Sequence record: OQ718158.1
Source: Escherichia phage vB_Ec-M-J
Direction: 5' to 3' (one strand)
DNA length: 64,000 nucleotides
In this document: one piece after another, positions 287 to 63,354 of the stretch
Layout: each line of letters opens with the position of its first letter
Numbering within the stretch: the stretch's first letter is position 1
Program-made: the position numbers and the translations under genes
Notes under the pieces: generated by a model
What the model was told of the DNA's origin: nothing
Databases searched by the model: none
The model's input: only the letters and a program-made list of their open reading frames with translations

Positions 287-316
287 TCGGGGCATTTAAT
301 GTCCCGATATTTTTTT
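287..316 (+). terminator. Rho-independent terminator
   Basis: 7-bp GC-rich stem (tcggggc/gtcccga) followed by T7 run. Confidence 0.7.
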
Positions 317-379
317 GAGACAAACAAAGCATTGATGATACAATGTTGCATGACAAAGAGACATTAAAAAGGAATTCAA

Positions 380-2344: not shown

Positions 2345-2355
2345 TATAGATTAAT

Positions 2356-2378
2356 GGGGAACATGGTGTTCCCCTTTT
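2356..2378 (+). terminator. Rho-independent terminator
   Basis: ggggaacatggtgttcccc hairpin followed by tttt. Confidence 0.7.
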
Positions 2379-2394
2379 ACAAAGAGACAATGGA

Positions 2395-3807
2395 ATGGCT
2401 AAAAGTAAAAAAACCGAAAATCAAAGCATCGATAACCAAACACTAACTCTACTAGATTATAACAGTTCTGATTATGTGAATACCACATCACTAGAATATT
2501 CAATGTACACACTAGACCGTGCAATCCCTGGGATTGATGGCCTTAAGAGTTCACAGCGTAAAGCAATCTTCACCCTCTCAAAAGTTAGTGGTGAAATCAA
2601 AACTGTATCATGTGCTGGTAAAATGATTAGTGATGGTATCTATCTACACGGTGATACATCTGCATCTGGTACTCTTCAGAACCTAGCATCACCAGTCGTA
2701 AACAACTACCCACTCATTGGTAAACGTGGTGGTTTTGGTACACAAGTAAACAGTACTCCAGCTTCTGCTCGTTATACTTATGTTAAAAAGAATAAAAGTA
2801 CTGAAATGTTAGTACTACGTGACTCTGACATTATTCCAATGAAAGAGAACTATGATGGTACTACAATGGAACCAAGTTTCTTTTTACCTATTATCCCACT
2901 ATCTTTGTTTGGTAACGATAGTATGTCAGTAGGTTATAAGAGTACAATTCTACCACATAAGATTGAAGATGTTATTGATAACTGTATTCGTGCTATTGAT
3001 AAAAAACCATTAAAAGAAATGACTCCATACTATGTTTCATGTGGTGCAAGTGATATAGTAACTAAGCTTGATGAAAACAAATATGAGTTCTATGGTAAAG
3101 CACAAGTAATTGATGCAAGTACTGTTAAAGTAACAGGTCTACCACCTAACTACAGTATTGAGAAATTCATCGAGAAACTCATTAAGATGAGCGATGATGG
3201 TGATATTCGTGATTATGATAATGATAGTACTGATGTTATTGATATTACAATCAAATTACCACGCGGAACATCTGCTAAATGGGTGGAGAAAGATGTAATT
3301 GAATACTTTGGCATTCATAAGAAGATGACACAAATCCTAACTGTTCTAGGTGAGAATGGTAAGGTTAAAGTCTATGATAACACAATGGATTTGATTAAGG
3401 ACTTTGTTGAATTCCGTTTCAAATACTATGTGAAACGCTATGAGAAGAAACTTGATGATTGTGCTGCTGAAGTACGTTATAAGATTCTAATCAAAGAATG
3501 TTTTGATAATGATATGATTGCTAAGGTTAAGGGTTTTGCTAACCGTTCAGAAATGGTTGAGTTTGTTAAATCATTAAACACTGAAATCGAAGCAACCGAT
3601 GAGAATATTCAAAGCATCGTAAACTTCCCATCATATCGTTGGACCCAAGACAATTATCAATCAGTACTAGCTGATATTCAACATAACTTGGATTTAATGG
3701 ATGAATATAACAATCTCCTGTCGAATCATGATTTGATTTGGAACATCTATAAAGATGAGTTGAAAGAACTACGTAAGATTGACTTCACGCCAAAAACTGA
3801 AGATTGA
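2395..3807 (+). CDS. 52: DNA topoisomerase II medium subunit (GyrA-like breakage-reunion), T4 gp52-like, 470 aa
   Basis: N-terminal YSMYTLDRAIPGIDGLKSSQRKAIF resembles the GyrA N-terminal signature; directly downstream of the ATPase/Toprim subunit. Confidence 0.85.
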   Translation: MAKSKKTENQSIDNQTLTLLDYNSSDYVNTTSLEYSMYTLDRAIPGIDGLKSSQRKAIFTLSKVSGEIKTVSCAGKMISDGIYLHGDTSASGTLQNLASPVVNNYPLIGKRGGFGTQVNSTPASARYTYVKKNKSTEMLVLRDSDIIPMKENYDGTTMEPSFFLPIIPLSLFGNDSMSVGYKSTILPHKIEDVIDNCIRAIDKKPLKEMTPYYVSCGASDIVTKLDENKYEFYGKAQVIDASTVKVTGLPPNYSIEKFIEKLIKMSDDGDIRDYDNDSTDVIDITIKLPRGTSAKWVEKDVIEYFGIHKKMTQILTVLGENGKVKVYDNTMDLIKDFVEFRFKYYVKRYEKKLDDCAAEVRYKILIKECFDNDMIAKVKGFANRSEMVEFVKSLNTEIEATDENIQSIVNFPSYRWTQDNYQSVLADIQHNLDLMDEYNNLLSNHDLIWNIYKDELKELRKIDFTPKTED

Positions 3808-3817
3808 TTATAAACAG

Positions 3818-3848
3818 GGAAGACCTTTATGGGTCTTCCTTGTCCTTT
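3818..3848 (+). terminator. probable terminator hairpin
   Basis: ggaagacc / ggtcttcc stem, U-rich tail interrupted. Confidence 0.45.
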
Positions 3849-3849
3849 A

Positions 3850-3857
3850 TATAAATA
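3850..3857 (+). promoter_or_regulatory. T4-type late-promoter-like box TATAAATA
   Basis: Exact TATAAATA about 40 nt upstream of the 798-aa ORF start; no -35 element. Confidence 0.4.
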
Positions 3858-3895
3858 ATCTATAGATAATGGTAGCTTGGCTATGGAGAATTATA

Positions 3896-6292
3896 ATGAC
3901 AACTTTTACCCCTAGATGGGATATAAAAGCCGATGCTCGATATATACAAGAAGGACAAGACATTCTTGTGCGTTTGAGTATCAACAAAGAAACCACAACG
4001 GATGATAGTTATATACTTAATGAAAACGAATACTTAGAGATGATTCTAACTATTCAGGGTTTGGACAGTTCTGATGCAGTATTTCAACCAGAAGATCACT
4101 ACGCAGTGTATGTTGGTAATGATGAATCTAATCTCACACCTATATCATCAGGTATTACTGGTAACAAGTTGATTAATGGTAAGCACAAATGTAAAATTGA
4201 TAAAACTCAATTTGATCTATCGGCAAGCACTAATACCGAAGATGTTTATTTTATTAAATTGCATTGTAAAGATGATGGTACATTTAACAACTCTGAACAG
4301 ATTAACTTCTATCTTCAAGCAGTAAATGTTATGTACTATGGTAACATTTCCCCTAGTGGTGAAATTGGTTCAAATGAAGTAACAATTGAATATGATAGTC
4401 AGGAAGTGTGGGTTACTCCTGGAATCGAAATCGGTGATGATGACAAATTATATTGTATTGGTGATATTGAATACGGTTCCAACAGTACTTTATTTGTACA
4501 GGGATTTGGTCGTCGTCGTCCATTTATTTTAGGAACTGATACATCAACTGACCTATCTCCTAGAGTATTTTATCCAGCGTATCGTCTACTCGATATGACC
4601 CCAGCAGAAGTTCCTGTACGCCACATCACTGATGATTATGCAATCCTACGTCCTATTGATAATATATGGCCTGTATTTGGTATTAATAAAGAAATTAAGG
4701 TTAATATTCAAACTAGCTCTGGAGAGTTACTAGATTCAGGATTGGTTTTCAACCCAAATGGACAATTTCTGCAAACATTCCTATATGACTCTGATGCATG
4801 TGATGCATATTTCAAAGTTGAAATTGTTGATATTTTGAGTACATATAGTTATGACACTGACCGCTTCGCTATAAACCAACGTTTCAAAGCATATCAAATG
4901 TGGGTATGTCCAGACAATGTAGATGGTATATACGCTGATGGTGATAAACCTTTACCTAATCATTTGTATCAGTTGAAAGATAACGTTGTATATCCATATG
5001 TAATCTCTGGTGAATATGATCTAGGTGAAACAAAGCCAGTGTTTAAAAGTTCAGATTGGATTGATTTAGGATATTATGATTCAAGCTTAGGTGAGAATAT
5101 TATAGGTGAAGAGAAGATGTTCCGTGTTCTAGTGAACGCAGAAGAAGGAAACTCAATAGACTTCACAACTGATAGTGATTTAGGTAGTATTCATGTGGGT
5201 GAATATTTCGGTCACAGTACTTATCCACAAATACAAACTACCAGTACTAATCAGGTATCTTATGTATTAGATGGTGGACCTGATGATATTCGCAAATATG
5301 GTTTGGACCTCACCGCAGATGGGTTCTTGGTCGGGACGGCATATGCAAAAAGTTTAGATTTCAGTGCAAATGATGATATAAATTTAGAATTCAACATCAA
5401 AGCATATGACACTGAAGGTGGTGTTGCGTCCAAGTTATTTAAACTTAAAATTGTACGTGGTTTTGGACAAAACTACTTAAGTGCACATATTGTACCTTCT
5501 GTTTATTTTGAACGTGAATGGTTTAAGTGTATTAGTACACCATCATTTACAAATCAAGCTTTCCATCGCCAATCAGATGATAGATACGGGTTACAAAAAG
5601 TACCACGTATTTTATTAAAAGAAAACTTTTTGAGTCAGAACTATACTTACACTACGTTGAGTGATATTAAAAAAGTACTTAGGGAAAATATCATAAACCA
5701 AACTGGTGCAACTATACCTGATGGAAAATTTAGAATGGTAATGGGCAACTATAAAGTAATGTCAGCACTTGACAACCAAGGTAACTTGCAGTATGATATA
5801 TTATACCGTGAAGTTTTACCAGCAGGTTCATTGGTGTCAGTTTCTAAGAATCCAAGAAGTTACACGCAAATTGATAACGGAACACTCGGTGAAATATTTG
5901 GCTTGCGTCAAAATATTTTTGCAGCAATTGGCGAAGACACAACTAACCTTGTGAAAGACCCAACTGATTTACAGAACCGTGGTTTGTATGTAGATGCTAT
6001 ACCTGGAATTTCTGATGAGATGCTAGATACTGTTCCTCGCTTCATGAATCACCCATACGAAGAAGATGGAGTTAAAAAGAAATTCATGCCAATCATTCCA
6101 GTTGCATACTGTGCACCAGGAAAGGGTGAAGCATTCTTTAACACTTTACTTCAGAACAATGAACATGGTAAGATGGTTGGTGTTGAGTTTGAAATCACAG
6201 GAGTTGAATTTGGATTCTTTGCACATGAATTCGAAAACTACGTTCATGATACATTTTTGATTTCATTACAAAACAGCAATTTAGGAGGATGA
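3896..6292 (+). CDS. large hypothetical protein (798 aa), possibly a late/virion protein
   Basis: Long ORF; start moved to ATG 3896 (GGAG 8 nt upstream); late-type box upstream; no catalytic motif recognised. Confidence 0.8.
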   Translation: MTTFTPRWDIKADARYIQEGQDILVRLSINKETTTDDSYILNENEYLEMILTIQGLDSSDAVFQPEDHYAVYVGNDESNLTPISSGITGNKLINGKHKCKIDKTQFDLSASTNTEDVYFIKLHCKDDGTFNNSEQINFYLQAVNVMYYGNISPSGEIGSNEVTIEYDSQEVWVTPGIEIGDDDKLYCIGDIEYGSNSTLFVQGFGRRRPFILGTDTSTDLSPRVFYPAYRLLDMTPAEVPVRHITDDYAILRPIDNIWPVFGINKEIKVNIQTSSGELLDSGLVFNPNGQFLQTFLYDSDACDAYFKVEIVDILSTYSYDTDRFAINQRFKAYQMWVCPDNVDGIYADGDKPLPNHLYQLKDNVVYPYVISGEYDLGETKPVFKSSDWIDLGYYDSSLGENIIGEEKMFRVLVNAEEGNSIDFTTDSDLGSIHVGEYFGHSTYPQIQTTSTNQVSYVLDGGPDDIRKYGLDLTADGFLVGTAYAKSLDFSANDDINLEFNIKAYDTEGGVASKLFKLKIVRGFGQNYLSAHIVPSVYFEREWFKCISTPSFTNQAFHRQSDDRYGLQKVPRILLKENFLSQNYTYTTLSDIKKVLRENIINQTGATIPDGKFRMVMGNYKVMSALDNQGNLQYDILYREVLPAGSLVSVSKNPRSYTQIDNGTLGEIFGLRQNIFAAIGEDTTNLVKDPTDLQNRGLYVDAIPGISDEMLDTVPRFMNHPYEEDGVKKKFMPIIPVAYCAPGKGEAFFNTLLQNNEHGKMVGVEFEITGVEFGFFAHEFENYVHDTFLISLQNSNLGG

Positions 6293-6293
6293 T

Positions 6294-6605
6294 ATGTTCA
6301 ATCCATTTTTTGATCCATCAACCATGACCGAGAAAGAGTTACAATTGAAAATTAACGAACAATCGATGCGTATTACGTCTGCTCGTGCAGCAGGTATGAG
6401 TGATATGATTGTTGGTAACATGCAAACCGTTCTGAATCAGTGCTATGCTGAATTAGAGATTCGTCAGGGACAAAAAGAAAAAACCTCCTATGATGAGCAA
6501 GACCCATGTATATTTGACATGAACTCTTACTTAACGGATAACGAAGAGGATCAGAAGAAGAAAAATGAAAGTACAAGGAAACAGATTTATAAGTCCCAAT
6601 GGTGA
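6294..6605 (+). CDS. hypothetical protein (103 aa)
   Basis: ATG preceded by aggagga; starts 2 nt after upstream stop. Confidence 0.6.
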   Translation: MFNPFFDPSTMTEKELQLKINEQSMRITSARAAGMSDMIVGNMQTVLNQCYAELEIRQGQKEKTSYDEQDPCIFDMNSYLTDNEEDQKKKNESTRKQIYKSQW

Positions 6606-7083
6606 TGTAAAATGTAACCTTAATGCAGTCGTGTATGCAATCAACTGTGGTGCAGATATTCAGTACTTACAGCTACAGGAGATTGACGAACCGGAACGAT
6701 TGAAATTTAACGATAATTGTAAAAAATTTGGTTTAGAACAGCGTATGCTGGATTATACAATAGAACATGATAAAAACCATGAGCTATGGCGTTATGATCC
6801 AGTGTACGATAACATCAACTTGCGTGAGTACTTTTTACAGAAATGTACATCGGATGAAGCCCGTGAACGTGTAATGTATGAGATTGATTTGTTTGAACAT
6901 TACAACATGACTAAGCTTTTAAGATGTATGATCTGGTTAGTTGATTATATGGAAGAGCACAATATTTTTTGGGGTCTTGGGCGTGGTAGTTCAGTGGCTT
7001 CGTATTGTTTGTTCCTGATTGATTTGCATATGGTTGATTCTTTGAAGTATAAACTAGATGTAAATGAATTTTTGAAATGGTAG
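6565..7083 (+). CDS. hypothetical protein (172 aa) with a C-terminal GRGSSVAS...IDL...EFL segment reminiscent of a Pol III alpha (DnaE) motif
   Basis: ORF overlaps upstream gene by 41 nt; motif resemblance is by eye only. Confidence 0.5.
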   Translation: MKVQGNRFISPNGDVKCNLNAVVYAINCGADIQYLQLQEIDEPERLKFNDNCKKFGLEQRMLDYTIEHDKNHELWRYDPVYDNINLREYFLQKCTSDEARERVMYEIDLFEHYNMTKLLRCMIWLVDYMEEHNIFWGLGRGSSVASYCLFLIDLHMVDSLKYKLDVNEFLKW

Positions 7084-7146
7084 AAAAACATGTGATATAA
7101 TGTTGTTTGAGGCGTTATATCACTCACATAGAAAAAGGATTTTTAT

Positions 7147-7491
7147 ATGTCAAAACACACAACTTATCGTGGAACCACCATTGATATGGATATGCTAAAG
7201 TATCAAAACCAGCACCAAGTAGCACTAGGTAATGCAAACCTAAATGCTCGTGGTGATAAGATTGGTTCAGGTGGTACGGTTATTAAAACCCGTGAAGAAC
7301 TAATCCAAGAAAAAGAACGTGAAATGCAAATTCCTGATTTCATTCCTGAACACCAACTTCACAGTGCTGAATATAGTACTGAAGAAGTATGGGATGATGA
7401 AAGCTTTGAAGTTCAACCACAAGAACCAGAAGTTGAAGTATCTGAAGAGAAGAAAGCTCCACGCCGAGCAAAAACTAAAGATCAGGAGTAA
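7147..7491 (+). CDS. hypothetical acidic protein (114 aa)
   Basis: ATG with aaaaagga SD; no motif recognised. Confidence 0.7.
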   Translation: MSKHTTYRGTTIDMDMLKYQNQHQVALGNANLNARGDKIGSGGTVIKTREELIQEKEREMQIPDFIPEHQLHSAEYSTEEVWDDESFEVQPQEPEVEVSEEKKAPRRAKTKDQE

Positions 7492-7494
7492 TTC

Positions 7495-7821
7495 ATGACC
7501 AATAAAGTAATGACAGCTTGTAAAGGTAAAGTTATTGTAACTGAACTAGAACATGGTGAGCGTAAAACCGCAGGTGGTATTGTACTTACAAGTGATGATG
7601 GTAAGATTCGTGGTATTCGTTGTCGTTGGGCTAAAGTATATTCTGTTGGTGAAGACATTACCGATATCAAAGAAGGACAATGGATTCTAATTGACCACGG
7701 TCGTTGGTCGAGAACTATTGAGATTGATGGTATTAAAATGAATCTCGTGGATTATCCAGCAGCAGTAAGTTTGGTATCTGACACTGATCCACGCATCTCT
7801 GCTCAAACATTTGGTCGTTAA
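7495..7821 (+). CDS. 31: GroES-like co-chaperonin (T4 gp31-like), 108 aa
   Basis: KVIVTELEHGERKTAGGIVLT matches GroES mobile-loop region; size and position consistent with gp31; SD caggag. Confidence 0.8.
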   Translation: MTNKVMTACKGKVIVTELEHGERKTAGGIVLTSDDGKIRGIRCRWAKVYSVGEDITDIKEGQWILIDHGRWSRTIEIDGIKMNLVDYPAAVSLVSDTDPRISAQTFGR

Positions 7822-7877
7822 AACATAAATCTAAAGCTCGGATATATTATCTGGGCTTTTTATTTGGATGAAAATAC

Positions 7878-8147
7878 ATGATAACTGATGATGGAAAATA
7901 TAGTTTTTCTGACGTTACGTTAGTTTCTAAAAATGGACGATTTATGTTTGAAGATAGAACTAACACGAAGTACGTATATGAAGTTTCTCATGATATGTTT
8001 AAGTACTTACTTATCGTATCAGCCCAGGCCGAAGCAATGGGTGTGAAGAACAAAGCAAACTCATTTAATTTTTTGTTTAATCAACTTGAAATGACAGAAG
8101 ACTTATTCACTGCATTGTTGTATGATTATGCAGATTGGATTTCATAA
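7878..8147 (+). CDS. hypothetical protein (89 aa)
   Basis: ORF in tight array; no motif. Confidence 0.6.
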   Translation: MITDDGKYSFSDVTLVSKNGRFMFEDRTNTKYVYEVSHDMFKYLLIVSAQAEAMGVKNKANSFNFLFNQLEMTEDLFTALLYDYADWIS

Positions 8148-8173
8148 ACACCTAATATACAAGGAAATAAAAC

Positions 8174-9127
8174 ATGACTACATTATGGACTGAAAAATAC
8201 CGCCCACAAACTATGGAAGATTATGTATCGAAGAACGAAGCCCTACGTCAGAAGATGGAAGAATGGATTCGTACTGGTGATATCCCACATATTGGATTTT
8301 TTGGACCAGCAGGGACAGGTAAAACTTCAGCAATCAAAGTACTACTGAATGGTCTGGAAGCTAACGGACACCTTGACCCTAGTGATGTAACAACACTGAA
8401 TATGTCAGATGAAGGTATCGATGCTGTTCGTGACAAAATTGATGCAGCAGCAAAACTATCATGTTTTGGTCGTTATCGTGTATTTGTTCTGGAAGAAATG
8501 GAACAAATGAACCACAAAGCACAGGGTAGCTTGAAACGTGTCATGGAAGATTACCATGAAAATGCTCGTTTCATTCTTACCAGTAATGAACCACATAAGA
8601 TTCAGAAACCTATTATCTCTCGTGTCCAGGTCATCACCATTGAGAAGCATGATATGGAACAATTCATGTCACGCATCTACAACGTACTATTGGCAGAAGG
8701 AGTAGATCTAAGCACTGATGAAAGTATTGAACAAGTACAAAAATACATCAATGCTTCATATCCTGATTTCCGCAAAACGCTAAACGTATTGCAAAGTTCA
8801 GTAGTCGATGGTAAACTTGTAAAACTTGAAGACAGTATTGAGAACTCTGCTGGGTATCGTACTGCCATTGTTGATGCACTAAAAGCTGGTAACATTCGTC
8901 AAATGCGTGAGCAGATCGTGCAAAACATTCCTGATGATGAGATGGATGCATTCTTCTCTTATCTGTATCGTAATGCAGAAATGTTCAGTACTGATGAAAT
9001 TACTCTAATGAAAATTAAGGTTAAGATTCGTGACGCTGTTGTTAAACAAGCTACCGTGTCTGACCGTGAAATGAATCTCAGTGCATTACTGTGTGAGATT
9101 GACCTAATCTGTTCGGGGAACATGTAA
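8174..9127 (+). CDS. 44: sliding-clamp loader large subunit (AAA+ RFC-like), T4 gp44 homologue, 317 aa
   Basis: EKYRPQTMEDYV N-terminus, Walker A GPAGTGKTS, Walker B FVLEEME, SRVQVITI and YPDFRKTLNVLQ match gp44 signature blocks. Confidence 0.9.
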   Translation: MTTLWTEKYRPQTMEDYVSKNEALRQKMEEWIRTGDIPHIGFFGPAGTGKTSAIKVLLNGLEANGHLDPSDVTTLNMSDEGIDAVRDKIDAAAKLSCFGRYRVFVLEEMEQMNHKAQGSLKRVMEDYHENARFILTSNEPHKIQKPIISRVQVITIEKHDMEQFMSRIYNVLLAEGVDLSTDESIEQVQKYINASYPDFRKTLNVLQSSVVDGKLVKLEDSIENSAGYRTAIVDALKAGNIRQMREQIVQNIPDDEMDAFFSYLYRNAEMFSTDEITLMKIKVKIRDAVVKQATVSDREMNLSALLCEIDLICSGNM

Positions 9128-29296: not shown

Positions 29297-30127
29297 ATGT
29301 CATTGGAAAAAGTAATTATTTCTGAATTCCGAAAGTACATCATTGATTGTGATAGAGATACCCAGCGTAAGTTCAATGAGTATCTTGACAAATATCCATA
29401 TTTGATGTTTAATCCATTTGAAACTCAATCCGATGTTAATCTTGGATTTTACATTGGGTTTACACAACGAATTCTACAACAATATGAGATGAAACAGCCA
29501 GAGGTTTGGGTAGAAACTGATTCGAATGAGACGAATGTTTTTTATCTGTACTCTTATTATGCGGAAATTGTTAGTTCAATGACGCTAGAAGGGTATCTAT
29601 TCGTCAAAACATCTGATATTGAAAAAATATACATAGAACCTGTATCTTTGGATATGGTTGCCCAGCTTCCAACAGTTCAATATTTGGATGCAAATGAGTT
29701 GACATATTCGGTGTTTGAGTACCTTAACCGAGACGATTTAACTCAAGAAATTGAGAATATGGTTTCAAAATATACCACAACTCTTATATCTAATGGTTCA
29801 CTTAGAATAGAACTGATTTACGACGATACTAGTACTAATGCAGTACGAGGAACTCGAATTGGAAAAGTTACTATACGTGTTGTCCACAATGATGTAGTAC
29901 TTGGTTATATTTCGAAACGTGGTCATGACTTGTGTTTGATTAACACATATGTTATTGAACGAAAAGAATGGAACGATTTAATGCAAAAAATCGTAGACGG
30001 AAGTGGAATTCGTGATATAATGTGTAATGAGGTAGTGACAATGAATCCTGACATTGACTGTGATGTATATTTCCCAGTTCCTGGATTTACTCTACGTAAT
30101 TTTGGTACATTAAAGGGTACAAAATGA
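29297..30127 (+). CDS. hypothetical protein (276 aa)
   Basis: ORF-track start 29291 is TTG; first ATG is 29297. Confidence 0.7.
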   Translation: MSLEKVIISEFRKYIIDCDRDTQRKFNEYLDKYPYLMFNPFETQSDVNLGFYIGFTQRILQQYEMKQPEVWVETDSNETNVFYLYSYYAEIVSSMTLEGYLFVKTSDIEKIYIEPVSLDMVAQLPTVQYLDANELTYSVFEYLNRDDLTQEIENMVSKYTTTLISNGSLRIELIYDDTSTNAVRGTRIGKVTIRVVHNDVVLGYISKRGHDLCLINTYVIERKEWNDLMQKIVDGSGIRDIMCNEVVTMNPDIDCDVYFPVPGFTLRNFGTLKGTK

Positions 30128-30972: not shown

Positions 30973-31089
30973 TTTTTGGGACAACGCTGAAAAGCATGAT
31001 ATAATGTATATTATCGGCAGATGTAAAAATGCAAACCATTCCTCAATGATGAGGGTTTTTCATAAAAAAGAAATAAAAGGGTATTAAAA

Positions 31090-35379: not shown

Positions 35380-35396
35380 ATATTGGAACAGACTAT

Positions 35397-35512
<116 letters not shown>

Positions 35513-35516
35513 AAAT

Positions 35517-35602
<86 letters not shown>

Positions 35603-35619
35603 CAATTAAAGGTTAAACC

Positions 35620-35780
<161 letters not shown>

Positions 35781-35784
<4 letters not shown>

Positions 35785-35941
35785 CACATGAAGAATGGAT
35801 GAATGACATTAATTTTAGATATTCGGGTATCGGTAAATGGCTAAAGTATCATTGGGAATTCATTTCAGAGCCACATCTGTATGATAAACTTATCAACGAT
35901 CCAGCATATGAAATGTACTTAATTGAACTACTGGTACGAAT

Positions 35942-35945
<4 letters not shown>
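35781..35945 (+). CDS. small protein, MTHEEW mini-family copy 2 (54 aa)
   Basis: MTHEEWMNDINFRYSGIGKW...; near-identical 5' 50 nt to copy 1. Confidence 0.5.
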
Positions 35946-36113
<168 letters not shown>

Positions 36114-36114
36114 G

Positions 36115-36536
<422 letters not shown>

Positions 36537-36540
<4 letters not shown>

Positions 36541-36565
36541 CTAAATAGTTCAGTACTGATATAAT
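36537..36565 (+). promoter_or_regulatory. sigma70-type promoter, repeated cassette copy 2
   Basis: Identical 22-nt ttgactaaatagttcagtactg then aTATAAT; -35 overlaps stop codon. Confidence 0.6.
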
Positions 36566-36571
36566 GAATTC

Positions 36572-36912
36572 CACAATCAGACGTATATGGTGTAAGTTAC
36601 GTCGATGTAATCCAGAACAAGATCTCTGGTACTCTAGGAAGTGGTGAATGTTAACCTAGACGGGTTTGATAATTGGACGATAGGCAATTATTACTTGACT
36701 AGCAGGTTTAAACTAGAGGTGACAGTCCTTTACCAAACTGGAAAACCGGATGGACTTTTATTTAAAAGGGTAAGGCGTGGAAATATGTTTACAGTAGTTG
36801 CTTTTAGTAGCCTGTACGCCCCACGTCAAGGTAGCCGAAAGGCAAGTTAAAACGGGTGGTTATAAAGCTGAATTAACAGCGGCGTTTAAAAGCGTCACCA
36901 TCCATTTTTTTT
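36572..36912 (+). ncRNA. candidate structured non-coding RNA (~340 nt), unknown class
   Basis: No well-initiated ORF; locally elevated GC; several hairpins; bounded by promoter copy 2 and T8 run at 36905-36912. Confidence 0.3.
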
Positions 36913-36928
36913 AATTAAAGTTGGTGAT

Positions 36929-37568
<640 letters not shown>

Positions 37569-37572
37569 CAAA

Positions 37573-37730
<158 letters not shown>

Positions 37731-37755
37731 CAAAAAAAAACAATGAGAGGTATAA

Positions 37756-38253
<498 letters not shown>

Positions 38254-38254
38254 T

Positions 38255-38286
<32 letters not shown>

Positions 38287-38330
38287 GATTCCCGATTCAG
38301 TAGTTTTAAAGCAGACCCGTATGTGCCTAT

Positions 38331-38422
<92 letters not shown>

Positions 38423-38441
38423 AGAGGTACTTCGAGTATGC

Positions 38442-38493
<52 letters not shown>

Positions 38494-38582
38494 TCAGTAC
38501 TACTTTTTAATTGACATATCATTGGATGAGGTGTAATATGGTTCAAGAAGAAAACTGGGGTTTTTAACACAAAGAGGCCAAT

Positions 38583-38629
<47 letters not shown>

Positions 38630-38654
38630 TGCTGCACCTATGCCTACTCTTGGC

Positions 38655-38725
<71 letters not shown>

Positions 38726-38726
38726 A

Positions 38727-38766
<40 letters not shown>

Positions 38767-38894
38767 TCAGGTCGATTAGTTAAAAGAGTATAACACGGAC
38801 CTTGTAAGTCTGAATAATCAGTGCAATTCTGATATTGACCTCAAAAATGATATTTTTCTTACATATAAATACTCCATAATATATGGAGAACTAT

Positions 38895-48217: not shown

Positions 48218-48639
48218 GGGGATACAATAAGATTTGTATTTTTGTATTTTTAGTTTGTGCAATCAATACATTTGGATATTACTGTACTGAAAACAACATT
48301 TCATATGGTTTAAATCCTTTGTGGTTTACAATTGCCAATGTAGCACAAATTGGTATTGCTGTTATGTCTGCACTTATGTTCTGTCCAATTGTCACTATGG
48401 ATACTGATCATGAAAGGCTTGGATTTATCCGTGATACTGGAGACGAACCTTACAGTAGATTGATTGTGTTGTATCCATTTATTGTTATTTTAGGTACTAA
48501 CATCCAACTTGGGTCTTTATCTAATAGTGTTACTTCAGCAGCCATTACAGTCTTTGCATTCACATTTTTTATGGTACACAAATCAGTACTCAAATGGCAC
48601 ATCACCAAAATGGCAGAGAAAGGTACGGAAAACAGTTGA
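48214..48639 (+). CDS. polytopic membrane protein (141 aa)
   Basis: Several hydrophobic segments; ATGA coupling. Confidence 0.6.
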   Translation: MRGYNKICIFVFLVCAINTFGYYCTENNISYGLNPLWFTIANVAQIGIAVMSALMFCPIVTMDTDHERLGFIRDTGDEPYSRLIVLYPFIVILGTNIQLGSLSNSVTSAAITVFAFTFFMVHKSVLKWHITKMAEKGTENS

Positions 48640-48698
48640 CGTGAGTTATTGAGAGATATATAATTATTACATCAAAACTGGGAAATGGTAAGGAACTT

Positions 48699-48956: not shown

Positions 48957-48985
48957 TTGACTTAACCAATAACATGGAGTACAAT
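48957..48985 (+). promoter_or_regulatory. sigma70-type promoter (TTGACT-17-TACAAT)
   Basis: Upstream of gene at 49025. Confidence 0.5.
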
Positions 48986-49024
48986 GTGCTCCTAATTTAA
49001 TTATCAGCTAAAAAGGAAAACATT

Positions 49025-49285
49025 ATGAAATCTATTCTCGTTGCAGTTAACCTGGTTGCTTCCCCATCTTTTAACTTCAAACAAGTTGTTGCTGATAATC
49101 TGAAGAAGATCTGTCCAAACGCTGAATTGACTTTCTGTGTGTTTGATTCAGAAAAAGTAACTAAAGTTGATCTAAACTATCTTTTGAACGAAGTACAAAG
49201 TATTTCTGGTGAAAGTAGTTTGGAAGTACTGAATACGGTTGCTGATGACTATGATGATACACTGGTAATTTCGGAGAAATTCTAA
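49025..49285 (+). CDS. hypothetical protein (86 aa)
   Basis: ATG with SD aaaagga. Confidence 0.6.
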   Translation: MKSILVAVNLVASPSFNFKQVVADNLKKICPNAELTFCVFDSEKVTKVDLNYLLNEVQSISGESSLEVLNTVADDYDDTLVISEKF

Positions 49286-49290
49286 ATCCA

Positions 49291-49710
49291 ATGCTTAGAT
49301 TTATACATTACTTAATCAGTAAGTTCTTTGGTTATTATACTATTGAAGGTAAAGCTACGCTTGCACATAAAATCTTTGTAGCATTATGTGTGGGTGATTA
49401 TGACGTATTGAATAAGCACTGTAAATCTAAAGCATGTATTGACATAATGGCACTTCGTATCTATGAGTGTCAGTTCAATAGATATAATTTTTACCAGTAC
49501 AGATATGATAAAGATGATTTTGATAGCATTAAAATGCTAAAGAATTTATGTAATAATAAAAAGAATATGCATATATCTGAATTTGTTGCATTGTATTTTT
49601 ATTTAAAAAGTTCATTATACATGAATACACTACAACGCTTCGATACTAGAATTAATGTATTCAACGATAAAGAATTTTATATCTATGATAAATTTTTAGA
49701 TAAGGTTTAA
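49291..49710 (+). CDS. hypothetical protein (139 aa)
   Basis: ORF in array. Confidence 0.6.
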   Translation: MLRFIHYLISKFFGYYTIEGKATLAHKIFVALCVGDYDVLNKHCKSKACIDIMALRIYECQFNRYNFYQYRYDKDDFDSIKMLKNLCNNKKNMHISEFVALYFYLKSSLYMNTLQRFDTRINVFNDKEFYIYDKFLDKV

Positions 49711-49711
49711 T

Positions 49712-50209
49712 ATGACAACTGTTTATATTGATAAACGCTTGGGAGTATTACTTACTGATTCAAAAGTGACATCAACTGAGCAACGTTCATTTTTGAACCT
49801 ATTCCCGTTGAAGCCAAAACTTAGTTATGGTGTAGTTTCACAAAAAACATTGTATGTACACGACCGACTGTTTAGTGCTTGCGGTGAGGTTAGTGAAATT
49901 AACAAAGTACTGAGATACTTGATTTCACAAGAGACTGTGATACCAGACCGCAAGGCGAGTTGTCACTGTGTTCTTGTGTCAAAAGATTACATCATTCACT
50001 TAATCGTTAATAAGGGTAAGTTTACCAAGAAGATTGATTATCTCCATAATGATTATACATTCTTTATGGGTAGTGGTGGTGAATACATGCTTGATGCAGC
50101 AGTACATGAAGAGTATAATACTCTTCTTGATAAGGTATTTGATACCTTCATGGATGTTCATAACCATGATATCTATACCGATGATAATATTAATGTATAC
50201 CGTTTTTGA
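49712..50209 (+). CDS. hypothetical protein (165 aa)
   Basis: ORF in array. Confidence 0.65.
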   Translation: MTTVYIDKRLGVLLTDSKVTSTEQRSFLNLFPLKPKLSYGVVSQKTLYVHDRLFSACGEVSEINKVLRYLISQETVIPDRKASCHCVLVSKDYIIHLIVNKGKFTKKIDYLHNDYTFFMGSGGEYMLDAAVHEEYNTLLDKVFDTFMDVHNHDIYTDDNINVYRF

Positions 50210-50231
50210 TTTCATTCATTAGGAGAAGTAA

Positions 50232-51200
50232 GTGAAAAAGCTTGATTTAAATGCAATTTCTGAAGAAGTACTGGATGAGTGTTTTGCTAGTGAAGAAGTC
50301 AACGTATTAGAGGCTCTTGATTCCGTAGAAGAAGAAGAAGAACATGACGGTCACAAGTTTGAGAAACCAAAAACAGGTATCAGCTTAACTCGCCCTAAAG
50401 GGATAACGAATGAAATGCTCATCCAAGCAGTGCGTGATGGCATAGACGTTAAAAAGAACATTGACCTTTTGGTTCGCTACAACTATCCAATGGTAGTAAG
50501 TGTTGCACGTAAGTGTACATGTTTTATCCCATTTGAAGATAAGATTTCTTATGGTGTTGAAGGTTTAATGCGAGCAATTCATACGTTCGACACTACCAAA
50601 AATGTTAAGTTCATTACATATGCAACAACAACTGTGTACATGACAATCTATAACGAAAGTGCAGATGCTAATTATCTAGTGCATTTCCCACGTTATATGA
50701 GTGTTAATAACATTTATGTGAAACGTTGTGTTGAAGAGTATCAAAGGAAACATGGTAAATACCCAACTCCTGAGATGGTGTCAAAAGAGACTGGTATTGA
50801 GATTCAACACGTTAAGAATTGTCTAACTTACAATAACACTTATGTAGCATTGAATATGAAAATGAGTAATGATTCAGAAAGTACATTATCTGACATTGTT
50901 ACTTCAGTTGAACCTGATTACAACTTAGGTGTAGAAACTGTCAGTACCCCACTGGTACAAAGTATTGCAGAAATGATGAGTAACCTATCTACCAAAGACC
51001 GTGAATTGATTGAACGTGTACATGGTATTGGTTCTTATTCTGAACCAGAAACGCTACGAGAAATCATTGAGAGTGGTTTTGAAGATGAGAAGGGTAAGGT
51101 CATGACTGCTCGTTCTTCATTGCACCGTAAGTACTCTGAAGCAATGGAACGACTGCGTAAGATGGTTAAGACAAAAGGTTATGAGTTCGAAGATTTTTAA
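50232..51200 (+). CDS. sigma-70 family RNA polymerase sigma factor (322 aa), GTG start
   Basis: Region 2 ISYGVEGLMRAIHTFDTTKNVKFITYATTTVYMTIYNE, linker KYPTPEMVSKETG, region 4 HTH at C-terminus; GTG after SD aggaga. Confidence 0.85.
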   Translation: MKKLDLNAISEEVLDECFASEEVNVLEALDSVEEEEEHDGHKFEKPKTGISLTRPKGITNEMLIQAVRDGIDVKKNIDLLVRYNYPMVVSVARKCTCFIPFEDKISYGVEGLMRAIHTFDTTKNVKFITYATTTVYMTIYNESADANYLVHFPRYMSVNNIYVKRCVEEYQRKHGKYPTPEMVSKETGIEIQHVKNCLTYNNTYVALNMKMSNDSESTLSDIVTSVEPDYNLGVETVSTPLVQSIAEMMSNLSTKDRELIERVHGIGSYSEPETLREIIESGFEDEKGKVMTARSSLHRKYSEAMERLRKMVKTKGYEFEDF

Positions 51201-51206
51201 GATTAA

Positions 51207-51234
51207 AGGGTTGACTTCGGTCAGCCCTTTTTTT
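51207..51234 (+). terminator. Rho-independent terminator with UUCG loop
   Basis: agggttgac ttcg gtcagccct then ttttttt. Confidence 0.75.
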
Positions 51235-51239
51235 ATGGG

Positions 51240-51770
51240 ACAAATTTATTAATGGTGATACAATGATCTATGTACAATCACAATGACAGTACTGGTACTG
51301 ACAATCTTCCCCTACTTCACTTGAAAATGTAAAGGATAGATGAGCTTTTCATTGTAGCGAACAGCAAAAGAAACCCGTTAGATGTGGGCATAGTTTGAAC
51401 CCCTCACGGCAATGCGGCTGTATAAAGAACCACGTTAGGATAGCTGGTGGTTCCTCGATAGACATATAAGGATAACACCTTACGAATTATCTAAGGGAGA
51501 GTTATCGAATTTTGTACAGGAAAGTTGCGTCCAAAATTTGAGTACTCACATTAAGTATTTGATTGCATAGATACTTAATGAAGATACACTATGTTTAAAA
51601 GTGTAGACCGTCATATGAAACTGAAGTAGAGAGAAACAGGATGACCCGCTTTCGCACTCGTTATGAGTAATCTTCAATGCAATAGCTCTGATACCATTAG
51701 CGTCAAATTTCCCTCCGTGCGGGGGGGAAGAAAAATCCCTTCCTCAAATCCCGTCAATATTAAAAGTCCT
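51240..51770 (+). other. ~530-nt ORF-free region, candidate structured RNA or regulatory region
   Basis: No ORF of 60 aa or more in the six-frame track on either strand, and none found by eye in the + strand reading; nested inverted repeats; locally GC-richer. Confidence 0.3.
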
Positions 51771-52072: not shown

Positions 52073-52296
52073 GTTATGGTGTTCGTTTTGAGATTCGTTC
52101 TATTGTTATCAATGACGAGAAACAAGCATCGTTGGATGACGATATACGAGAACTATATCTATCATGTATCCGTGCAAAATCTGAAGCAGATGCATTATCA
52201 CAAATGATTGGTTTTAATTTCTTTCATGGATACTATTTGGTACGAGTTATCGAAGTTAAAAAAGTCACTTTTGAGTGTCTTGCTGGAGAAATATAA
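52069..52296 (+). CDS. hypothetical protein (75 aa)
   Basis: ATGA-coupled. Confidence 0.5.
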   Translation: MSYGVRFEIRSIVINDEKQASLDDDIRELYLSCIRAKSEADALSQMIGFNFFHGYYLVRVIEVKKVTFECLAGEI

Positions 52297-52297
52297 A

Positions 52298-53092
52298 ATG
52301 AGCACTATAGATGAATTGATTCGCCGGAATTCAAAATACTACGAACCATCAGAAATTGTCGGCAACATTACTAAATCTGAGTTCGGACCAAATACTCGAA
52401 AACTCATTCATGTAATGTCACGTGATGGCTTTAAATGTGATTGTTGTGGTGAATCCAATGTGGTATTCACTTTACATAAGCACAGTACTAAAGACCGTTA
52501 TAAATTCAGACCTTATGTACTTAAAGGGAAACGCCTTGTACGCATGACGTTAGACCATAATGTACTAGACTGTCTTCAGGGCGGTAATGATAAAGAGAAC
52601 ATGACTGCATTGTGTGAGGATTGTAACGCATTACGCCAGCATAAGTTTGCTGAGTACAGTGAGTTTAAGTACTGGTATCATAACGCAGATCGTTCCATCG
52701 AGCCTGACGTTAACTACTGCTTCATTGAGTACATTAAGAATGCAAAAGATACATACATTCTAAAATCAATGTCACCTATTACAGTGTTCCCTGAGAATCT
52801 ATTCAGTACTATGCAGCGTGATTTTAAACGTGGTATCATTAATGCATTCAAACACTTAGACAAAGGTATCAAGCACTTTGAGGTGCAATGCTTAAATGAA
52901 GGAATGAATCGTTTAGTACAAATTTACATGAAATCATTTATAGGTGTTGACACCGCACGTCTACCAGTATATAATTACTTTATTGAAAGCGAAGAAGGTG
53001 AATCACTTCGTGATTATGGTGAAAGATTTAATAATAAAGTTTTCACTGCAATCGCAAACGAGATTCATTACTATAAACCATATGTAATTTAA
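52298..53092 (+). CDS. HNH-motif nuclease-like protein (264 aa)
   Basis: CDCCGES ... MTLDHNVLDCLQGGNDKENMTALCEDCNALRQ; ATG 52298 with SD ggagaa (ORF-track TTG 52208). Confidence 0.65.
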   Translation: MSTIDELIRRNSKYYEPSEIVGNITKSEFGPNTRKLIHVMSRDGFKCDCCGESNVVFTLHKHSTKDRYKFRPYVLKGKRLVRMTLDHNVLDCLQGGNDKENMTALCEDCNALRQHKFAEYSEFKYWYHNADRSIEPDVNYCFIEYIKNAKDTYILKSMSPITVFPENLFSTMQRDFKRGIINAFKHLDKGIKHFEVQCLNEGMNRLVQIYMKSFIGVDTARLPVYNYFIESEEGESLRDYGERFNNKVFTAIANEIHYYKPYVI

Positions 53093-59495: not shown

Positions 59496-59687
59496 ATGTT
59501 GATTTATCAATGTGATAACATTCGTGTTATGCAGCATCCCTACTTACAAATCTTTGATGTGCAGCAGTATATGGAAGGTGATGACCCAAGAACCTATGGT
59601 CGTAAGTATGATTACTTCACTGTAAAGCAGTGTCATAACATCAAAGAAGTACGACAATTAGTTCAAGAACTTCAAAATAAAGGTTGA
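59496..59687 (+). CDS. hypothetical protein (63 aa)
   Basis: ORF-track GTG 59466 overlaps upstream gene; ATG 59496 with SD gagga. Confidence 0.5.
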   Translation: MLIYQCDNIRVMQHPYLQIFDVQQYMEGDDPRTYGRKYDYFTVKQCHNIKEVRQLVQELQNKG

Positions 59688-59706
59688 CTTCGGTCAACCT
59701 TTTTTG
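59681..59706 (+). terminator. Rho-independent terminator with UUCG loop, doubling as -35 of a promoter
   Basis: aggttgac ttcg gtcaacct then tttttt; TTGACT in the stem is 18 nt upstream of TATAAT at 59708-59713. Confidence 0.7.
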
Positions 59707-59742
59707 TTATAATTACTTCATCAACTACTGGGGATTTTAATT

Positions 59743-62772: not shown

Positions 62773-62883
62773 TTTGACTTTGGAACAACCATTTCATATG
62801 TGATATAATCTTAAGTGTCTGTTGAAATAAACAGCACATGAAGTATAAATATTAAAGTAATTTATCTCTTTAAGGAGTATGAA

Positions 62884-63273: not shown

Positions 63274-63297
63274 GGGGTTGACTTCAGTCAGCCCTTT
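63274..63297 (+). terminator. terminator-like hairpin, TTGACT in stem and TATAAT 19 nt downstream
   Basis: ggggttgac ttca gtcagccc then tttg; weak U-tail. Confidence 0.45.
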
Positions 63298-63354
63298 GTC
63301 GTATAATATTTTCATCAAGTGATACAAAATACAAACAACGTGAGGTATTAAATT

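Follow-up and report, generated by a model that had tools for sequence, protein, structure and literature searches.

A sigma-70-family protein of a Rak2/121Q-like jumbo coliphage as a candidate middle-gene specificity factor

The 64,000 nucleotides (nt) of Escherichia phage vB_Ec-M-J analyzed here (OQ718158.1; the whole stretch is called the window below) carry at 50232..51200 (+) an open reading frame (ORF) of 322 amino acids (aa), with a GTG start and a TAA stop, whose product belongs to the sigma-70 family and has sigma2, sigma3 and sigma4 domains. The chances seem about even that this protein is a middle-gene specificity factor, retargeting host RNA polymerase to replication-gene promoters, a reading assembled from sequence comparisons. 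The source phage is a ~360-kilobase (kb) Rak2/121Q-like “group 2” jumbo coliphage, not a T4-type phage, and the sigma gene itself is already known, being annotated in near-identical GenBank genomes and published as a hallmark of the group. The finding of such a gene adds little as originally stated; the contribution is a concrete proposal, consisting of a promoter class, a -35 element that tracks the recognition helix of the sigma, and an insertion in its helix-turn-helix (HTH). If confirmed, it would explain how jumbo phages related to T4 manage middle transcription in the absence of MotA/AsiA, and would provide E. coli engineering with orthogonal sigma/promoter pairs.

Domains and departures from canonical sigma70

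Pfam Sigma70_r2 (PF04542) matches the protein at 37.2 bits against a cut-off of 24 and Sigma70_r3 (PF04539) at 44.8 bits against 25.3, and the sole PHROG matched is 351, “RNA polymerase sigma factor” (3e-48). PF04542 is also matched by all 27 members of the Rak2-like sigma clade (defined by 15 cluster representatives with E<1e-30), to which the window protein belongs by its full-length similarity, N-terminal motif, G-[FY]-x-D-x-x-G-K insertion and jumbo-phage genome. Among solved structures the top sequence match is SigB (1.7e-17), followed by SigA and RpoS (~6e-15) and RpoD (1e-13), with matches spanning approximately region 1.2 to region 4.1. When the clade profile is compared by hhalign with RpoD-like proteins from bacteria (14 sequences), the probability is 99.9% and E is 1e-34 over 234 columns; the match spans regions 2-4, including the 4.2 recognition helix, and the bacterial side is gapped for nine columns at the HTH turn. 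The fold that AlphaFold2 (AF2) predicts from the clade alignment agrees with chains of sigmaS and SigA over 260-277 columns, its best full-length structural matches being to sigmaS. The original prediction had pointed to a clear region 2 from the likeness of FITYATTTVYMTIYNE to FSTYATWWIRQAITR, and this is borne out both by the Pfam score and by the gap-free alignment of FITYATTTVYMTIYNE (residues 127-142) to the FSTYATWWIRQAITR of mycobacterial SigA/SigB.

The region 4 HTH, also claimed there, emerges from the hhalign comparison, from the helices predicted by AF2 and from a scan of the clade, in which 9 of the 27 members match Sigma70_r4 (PF04545), but the Pfam model itself is silent on the window protein alone (no match at E<=1) because of the ~9-residue insertion in the HTH turn. 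The hidden Markov model (HMM) search of the sigma70 regions that had been proposed as a check was thus passed over cut-off by regions 2 and 3, and by region 4 in profile-profile comparison rather than in the single-protein Pfam scan. NCBIfam models for RpoD, RpoS, SigB and FliA give sub-threshold matches only, all far under their curated cut-offs, and the protein falls outside the group 1 RpoD equivalog (RpoD_Cterm TIGR02393, 96 bits against 354). The missing region 4 match and the low NCBIfam scores are what might be said for a chance ORF, or an unrelated HTH protein misread as a sigma. Against this stand the above-threshold regions 2 and 3, the extent and strength of the hhalign match, a sigma-like predicted fold and the retention of the protein in more than 100 phage records: such a reading is scarcely credible, and is effectively refuted already by Pfam, predicted fold and hhalign.

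The protein opens with an N-terminal module (residues 1-58; 50232..50405, + strand like all features of the gene) in which residues 1-18 (KKLDLNxIxxEVLDECF) are invariant in an alignment of 10 homologues and are followed by an acidic, weakly conserved linker. This invariance makes the GTG start credible, and the original prediction of a 322-aa ORF with that start holds. A Shine-Dalgarno sequence, AGGAG, can be read at 50221..50225, 6 nt 5' of the GTG; the next in-frame Met is residue 62; and GTG also starts the PBECO4 and CBB orthologues, with TTG starting that of UE-S1. Residues 1-49 have predicted local distance difference test (pLDDT) values below 50 in the AF2 model, and are predicted to be disordered. 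A Pfam scan of the protein found no match to region 1.1 (PF03979) or region 1.2 (PF00140), and the N-terminal 50-60 residues are a clade-specific acidic module, not homologous to region 1.1.

A region 1.2-like segment together with region 2 (sigma2) follows at residues 60-150 (50409..50681), placed by PF04542 (residues 80-142), hhalign and a residue map, then region 3 (sigma3) at residues 154-225 (50691..50906; PF04539 at residues 163-225, 1.4e-11) and region 4 (sigma4) at residues 241-315 (50952..51176), placed by AF2 (pLDDT 87-90), hhalign and the PF04545 matches of the clade. Predicted helices in region 4 occupy residues 254-264 and 275-280, with the recognition helix at 294-315 (RSSLHRKYSEAMERLRK). 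The insertion in the turn of the region 4.2 HTH, SGFEDEKGKV (51075..51104; consensus G-[FY]-x-D-x-x-G-K), is seen in the alignment, the AF2 model and the hhalign comparison, is conserved across the clade, and takes the form of a small beta-hairpin in the AF2 prediction. A T4-style clamp-binding tail was considered for the invariant acidic/aromatic C-terminus, GYEFEDF, and dropped, conservation of this sequence being confined to the close clade.

The residue map used the C-terminal 239 residues of E. coli sigma70, checked at 17 landmark residue numbers. In that numbering D403, F419, F427, Y430 and P453, concerned with core binding and the -11A pocket, are kept (the first four as D103, F119, F127 and Y130 of the sigma2 segment), and the 27-member clade has no invariant columns besides D403, F427 and P453. 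At the region 2.2 positions that bind the beta' coiled-coil of core polymerase, the clade-invariant D103 is joined by the equivalents of G408, G411, L412 and M413, while Q406, E407 and N409 are replaced by S, Y and V. The Trp dyad W433/W434 is T133/T134 here, and none of the 27 clade members has Trp at these positions. Contacts to -12 (Q437 to M, T440 to Y, R441 to N) and to the extended -10 (H455 to Y, E458 to V) are likewise replaced, and in the -35 helix R584 is kept while E585, R588 and Q589 become S, H and R. Of the group 1/2 residue set for -10 recognition and melting (Y430, W433/W434, Q437, T440), then, Y430 alone survives; of the -35 contact set, R584 alone, in an HTH interrupted at its turn. 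“Canonical”, the term first applied to this protein, is accordingly too strong. It resembles E. coli RpoD and RpoS in its three domains and the five retained residues, but differs from RpoD in these replaced contacts, in the 4.2 insertion, and in having neither region 1.1 nor the non-conserved region. The altered contact residues and the insertion lead to the prediction of a promoter specificity unlike that of the host.

A lineage-specific promoter class and its possible reader

Three promoter classes were seen in intergenic regions, and no recurrent motif beyond them: an early, host-consensus class, highly stereotyped in the terminal-repeat region; a late class, (T/G/A)ATAAATA, before structural genes and like the T4 late promoter; and a second class, tTTGrGACAAa-N11-TGnTATAATG (in shorter form, TGrGACA-N13-TGnTATAAT). 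All 16 unique sites of the second class fall on the + strand (none on the - strand), with ~1 expected, and they are concentrated in the replication-gene region. Genes preceded by such a site are the one upstream of DNA polymerase and those for the sliding clamp, single-stranded DNA-binding protein (SSB; two sites), primase, exonuclease and the large subunit of topoisomerase II. Further sites lie before a tRNA-Ser gene and before the non-coding stretch that follows the terminator of the sigma gene. A search for a recurring non-host promoter motif, proposed in the original prediction, has therefore produced one, ahead of replication genes. The distinct transcription programme suggested there becomes plausible with the finding of a phage-specific promoter class, but what we infer is core binding by the sigma, its timing and, most of all, its link to this class.

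Comparison of orthologous replication-gene promoters from three lineages shows a constant TGnTATAAT and a -35-like part that is lineage-specific at a fixed register, with 9-13 sites per lineage. In the window phage, fEgEco12 and PBECO4 this part is TGrGAC(A), and the sigma recognition helix is (A/S)RSS(L/I)HRKY (RSSLHRKY in the window); in CBB the pair is TGAAAC(G) and SKATLSRRY; in the RaK2 type it is TTGAAC(A) and VRGTLHYKF. Yersinia phage Yen9-04, for which one promoter is available, has both its motif (TGAAAC) and its helix (SKATLSRRY) in common with CBB. The CBB element TGAAACG is the published “divergent RpoD-like promoter” or middle motif (PMC5259590). It is not enriched in the window (8 sites on the + strand and 6 on the - strand), where its counterpart at the same register is TGrGACA. 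Enterobacterial hosts such as these should have the same region 4.2 DNA contacts in their sigma70, so that a lineage-specific -35 element indicates a phage-encoded reader; and since the element varies in step with the recognition helix of the phage sigma, this sigma would be the likeliest middle-gene specificity factor.

If so, host sigma70 holoenzyme would transcribe the sigma gene early, as the last of a four-gene operon ending at an intrinsic terminator. The phage sigma would then compete with sigma70 for host core RNA polymerase, binding it by the conserved sigma2 and sigma4 domains, and direct it to the tTTGrGACAAa-N11-TGnTATAATG promoters of the DNA polymerase operon and of the sliding clamp, SSB, primase, exonuclease, topoisomerase, tRNA and conserved non-coding RNA genes, with the RSSLHRKY helix of region 4.2 and the conserved HTH-turn insertion reading the altered -35-like element. 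Late genes would depend on another sigma, of gp55 type, with TATAAATA-like promoters. A fuller version of this proposal is more tentative, and we would put it somewhat below an even chance: the sigma would be the specificity factor of a lineage-specific middle class, reading the -35 by way of helix and beta-hairpin insertion; sigma and promoters would co-evolve rapidly; the downstream RNA would be a direct target; and transcription would pass in a cascade from sigma70 to the RpoD-like sigma to the gp55-like one. Such a three-sigma cascade, if true, would be a route to middle transcription unlike T4's MotA/AsiA.

Several observations weigh against assigning the middle class to the phage sigma, in addition to the silence of the Pfam region 4 model. 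The -10 of the class is a perfect sigma70 extended -10 (TGnTATAAT), and the phage sigma is without the residues that would read its TG (H455/E458, here Y/V) or its -12 position (Q437/T440, here M/Y), and without the Trp dyad; given this ideal extended -10 and these missing readers, the class could be read by host sigma70, either unaided or with the help of an activator. A likeness to TTGACA persists in the middle -35 elements, with a spacer of 18 (or 16) base pairs (bp). The correspondence between helix and motif is drawn from three to five phylogenetically nested lineages, and is confounded by phylogeny. A literature search for experimental characterization of this sigma family found none. 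One alternative, which we consider rather unlikely, is that the protein is a genuine sigma with other cognate promoters, serving another set or a delayed-early subset, and that the middle class, weak in its -35, is read in extended -10 fashion by host sigma70, perhaps with a MotA/AsiA-like phage activator. In favor of this are the ideal fit of -10 and TG to sigma70, the lost H455/E458 and Q437/T440 equivalents, and the agreement of the -35-like elements with TTGACA at 4-5 of 6 positions; moreover, the related phage PA5oct relies on host RNA polymerase, with only TTGAC/TATAATA-type promoters reported (PMC7318152). Consistent lineage-specific -35 variants are, however, hard to explain with a conserved host sigma70 as the reader. 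No MotA/AsiA homologue was seen in the inspected parts of the genome, nor is a gene of that type annotated in the ~230 kb inspected, and the intergenic regions show no further recurrent motif outside the early and late classes.

It is also conceivable, but improbable, that the protein acts mainly as a competitor or decoy with little specificity of its own, occupying host core polymerase or sigma-binding regulators and so shutting off host or sigmaS transcription. The structural likeness to sigmaS, the loss of the melting residues W433/W434 and of specificity residues, and the location of the gene among early genes of host-takeover type would all fit such a role. The recognition helix, however, is invariant in 10 close homologues (R-S-S-x-H-R-K-Y), the insertion motif is conserved clade-wide, and F419, F427 and Y430 are kept, a pattern more in keeping with selection for DNA binding and promoter melting than for core binding alone.

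The proposed role has partial parallels in better-known systems. In the cascade of the Bacillus phage SPO1, gp28 is the middle sigma and gp33/34 the late one. The likeness proposed is of an early phage sigma that displaces the host primary sigma on core polymerase and turns it to middle promoters, with another phage sigma for late genes; gp28 differs in being smaller and more divergent and in serving a Gram-positive host, and the late factor of the window phage is of gp55 type. T4 gp55 (with gp33 and the gp45 clamp) is likewise a phage sigma-family protein using host core polymerase, but is a minimal, region-2-like protein of ~185 aa, whereas the window protein has full regions 2, 3 and 4. With T4 MotA/AsiA transcription the middle class has in common a host-like (often extended) -10 and a phage-specific element in place of the -35, before replication genes; the difference is that T4 remodels region 4 of host sigma70, while the window phage encodes a new sigma.

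Individual sites of the second class (all +) include a candidate promoter, TTTGAGACAAAC-N-TGATACAAT, at 314..344 before the gp39-like gene for the topoisomerase II large subunit; a variant, TTGAAATG-N13-TGATATAAT, at 7072..7101 before gene 7147; a match at 35382..35412 directly before tRNA-Ser(tga); and TATGGGACAAAT...TGATACAAT at 51234..51264, directly after the sigma terminator and before the structured RNA described below. Motif scanning gave further matches at 29991..30021, 30975..31005 (TTTGGGACAAC...TGATATAAT) and 62779..62809. T4-late-like TATAAATA motifs occur at 3843-3857, 38857-38871 and 62837-62851, the first of these directly before the gene for an 807-aa virion structural protein (3869-6292).

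Genomic setting and early expression of the sigma gene

Identity of the window to Escherichia phage Turkey3 is 99.8%, to fEgEco12 99.4% and to 121Q/PBECO4 (Asteriusvirus) ~84%; RaK2, GAP32 and CBB, and jumbo phages of Erwinia, Yersinia and Xanthomonas, are more remote relatives. fEgEco12 is longer than the window by ~813 bp, the extra sequence lying somewhere in the interval from 9 kb to 49 kb of the window. “RNA polymerase sigma factor” is the existing annotation of the gene in Turkey3, fEgEco12, WPEC5, BF17, 121Q, PBECO4 and others, while EC.P1, CMSTMSU and a few other records give it merely as hypothetical. The CBB paper describes the orthologue CBB_513 as having regions 2-4 and lying in the predicted early region (PMC5259590); Iyer et al. 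found that all group 2 jumbo phages carry two sigma types, a minimal gp55-like one and an RpoD-like one (PMC7824862); and the Sharanji paper treats the RpoD-like sigma as a group 2 hallmark (PMC11895373). A full-length sigma in this phage is therefore expected, contrary to the original prediction.

The T4-like setting claimed with it needs a similar correction: distant homologues of T4 core genes are present, but in a Rak2/121Q-like jumbo phage, and the gp39, gp52, gp44 and gp31 homologues said to adjoin the sigma gene lie 41-50 kb upstream of it, at 380-9127 (gp39-like topoisomerase II large subunit, 380-2344; gp52-like, 2395-3807; gp31-like GroES, 7495-7821; gp44-like clamp loader, 8174-9127). 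Other T4 likenesses of the genome are its sliding clamp, its TATAAATA-like motifs and a gp55-type gene beside gp46/47-like genes. That gene, g336 in fEgEco12, matches PHROG 12791 (1.4e-152) and PHROG 234 (1.5e-16), neither of which is matched by the window protein, placing the latter outside the T4 gp55 family. The TATAAATA motifs fit a gp55-type late sigma encoded elsewhere in the genome, as g336 is in fEgEco12. With a gp55-type gene in the same genome the RpoD-like factor is additional to gp55, and the idea that it replaces gp55 was rejected on that ground and on that of the T4-late-like motifs before structural genes. The fEgEco12 “transcription regulator” g390 was likewise rejected as a gp33/MotA candidate, its PHROG (16215) being a virion structural protein. 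A sigma packaged in the virion and acting on immediate-early promoters is unsupported: in the part of the phAPEC6 structural-proteome paper that was available, a topoisomerase subunit and SSB are reported in virions and the sigma is named solely as a genome annotation.

A scan for promoters matching at least 11 of the 12 positions of TTGACA-N16-18-TATAAT found 36 in the window on the + strand and none on the - strand (~2.6 expected per strand). Such near-perfect sigma70 promoters extend from 5769 to 63307 (+), making nearly the whole window an “early” region of small ORFs for the host polymerase. The nearest one upstream of the sigma gene is TTGACT-17-TACAAT at 48957..48985 (+), with a stronger host-type promoter, TTGACG-17-TATAAT, at 48636-48664 (+). 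Three ORFs (+; 49025..50209) intervene, starting at 49025, 49291 and 49712 and encoding 86, 139 and 165 aa; they have no Pfam match, and among them PHROG 24804 and PHROG 1040 (2.8e-6) are matched. The weak match to PHROG 1040 belongs to the 165-aa ORF (49712-50209) directly 5' of the sigma gene, annotated as HslV in fEgEco12. Just 3' of the sigma stop codon an intrinsic terminator lies at 51205..51230 (+), an 11-bp GC-rich hairpin, AAAGGGTTGAC-TTCG-GTCAGCCCTTT, followed by a T run. The sole other terminator-like site between promoter and terminator is a weak 7-pair hairpin at 48976-48992 without a clear T run, overlapping the -10 of the 48957 promoter. That promoter thus probably drives a four-gene operon, consisting of the three ORFs and, last, the sigma gene; the layout fits early transcription of the sigma gene by host sigma70 holoenzyme.

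The terminator is one of three composite terminator/promoter elements (51205-51230, 59684-59713 and 63278-63307) in which a hairpin, GGGTTGACTTCGGTCAGCCC, holds a TTGAC(T) -35 hexamer. The elements at 59684 and 63278 have a TATAAT 18 bp further on, so that a single element could end one transcript and start the next. About 1 kb 3' of the sigma gene, an HNH endonuclease ORF (52208-53092) contains a perfect, 12/12 sigma70 promoter at 52947-52975.

The group 2 orthologues (CBB_513, 121Q gp167, PBECO4 gp356, Sharanji WNN14470 and fEgEco12 g519) have in common with the window protein their length, N-terminal motif, regions 2, 3 and 4, HTH-turn insertion and early position. There is no difference in kind between them, the allele of the window subclade being a local hot spot of divergence. 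The window protein is 99% identical to those of Turkey3, WPEC5 and BF17, 60% to those of 121Q and PBECO4, 40% to the RaK2 type and 37% to CBB, while SSB identity toward 121Q, RaK2 and CBB is 84%, 81% and 68%. In comparison with PBECO4 the flanking ORFs are 82-91% identical in amino acids and the core of the downstream RNA 97% in nucleotides, against 60% for the sigma; the HslV-like ORF, at 75%, is also less conserved than the next two ORFs (~90%). The sigma gene is thus a fast-evolving locus.

A predicted structured RNA and other window features

Directly after the sigma terminator, the ORF-free stretch 51271-51765 (core 51309-51763) is a conserved structured RNA of ~470 nt, apparently undescribed. 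Its 414-nt core is 98-99% identical to that of 121Q-type phages, compared with ~84% for neighboring genes, and over ~400 nt it is ~70% identical in CBB, GAP32, Erwinia, Serratia and Yersinia phages, EJP2, and Salmonella and Klebsiella phages; it has been found across Rak2-like jumbo phages of seven host genera. At the loci examined it occupies an unannotated gap of ~650 nt, in which Salmonella phage 7t3 has only short minus-strand ORFs annotated. The lineage's own middle-type promoter precedes the RNA wherever upstream sequence was captured, with the exception of EJP2, which keeps TGnTATAAT but has TGAGCA at the -35 register.

RNAalifold predicts 63 pairs, of which 35 show compensatory double changes; pairing extends to 92% of cells, a share that falls to 34-47% if the partners are slid, and none of 500 shuffles reached the observed value on any measure. 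A scan of the stretch against Rfam 15 gave nothing real at gathering thresholds or at E<=5. By blastn the RNA is present at 4-5 places per genome, and nhmmer identified a full-length paralogue at ~195.8 kb of fEgEco12 (7776-8241 of locus L137), beside endonuclease VII; neither a repeat search nor local blastn found a second copy within the window. A scan of IMG/VR with GAAACAGGNNNACCCGC was too unspecific, most of its 120 loci being chance matches, and the relevant ones were recovered by nhmmer.

This RNA and the excess of CAGTACTG, the core of the palindrome AGTACT, are probably the more novel leads in the window. AGTACT occurs at 171 window sites (for example 36131, 53611 and 57920), an 8-fold over-representation; it is 5-12-fold over-represented in fEgEco12, CBB and RaK2 sequence (loci L004, L005, L006 and L007), and AGTACTG is the commonest 7-mer of the window. 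Sites fall in all three reading frames, pointing to a signal at the DNA level, and the palindrome may serve for binding or modification. It also lies between -35 and -10, immediately 5' of the -10, in immediate-early promoters of the stereotyped kind (TTGACA..CAGTACTGTATAAT). A literature search for CAGTACTG returned unrelated primer sequences only.

Five tRNA genes (Ser-tga, Ser-gct, Met, Asn and Thr) form a cluster at 35423-38842, the first with the middle-class promoter at 35382-35412 and others with AGTACTG-containing promoters of sigma70 type. Within the span of this cluster, at 35601-35964, are three 161-nt tandem units, 76-81% identical over their first 42 nt and each opening with ATGACACATGAAGA(A/G)TGGATGAA, which look like a small family of tandemly duplicated ORFs.

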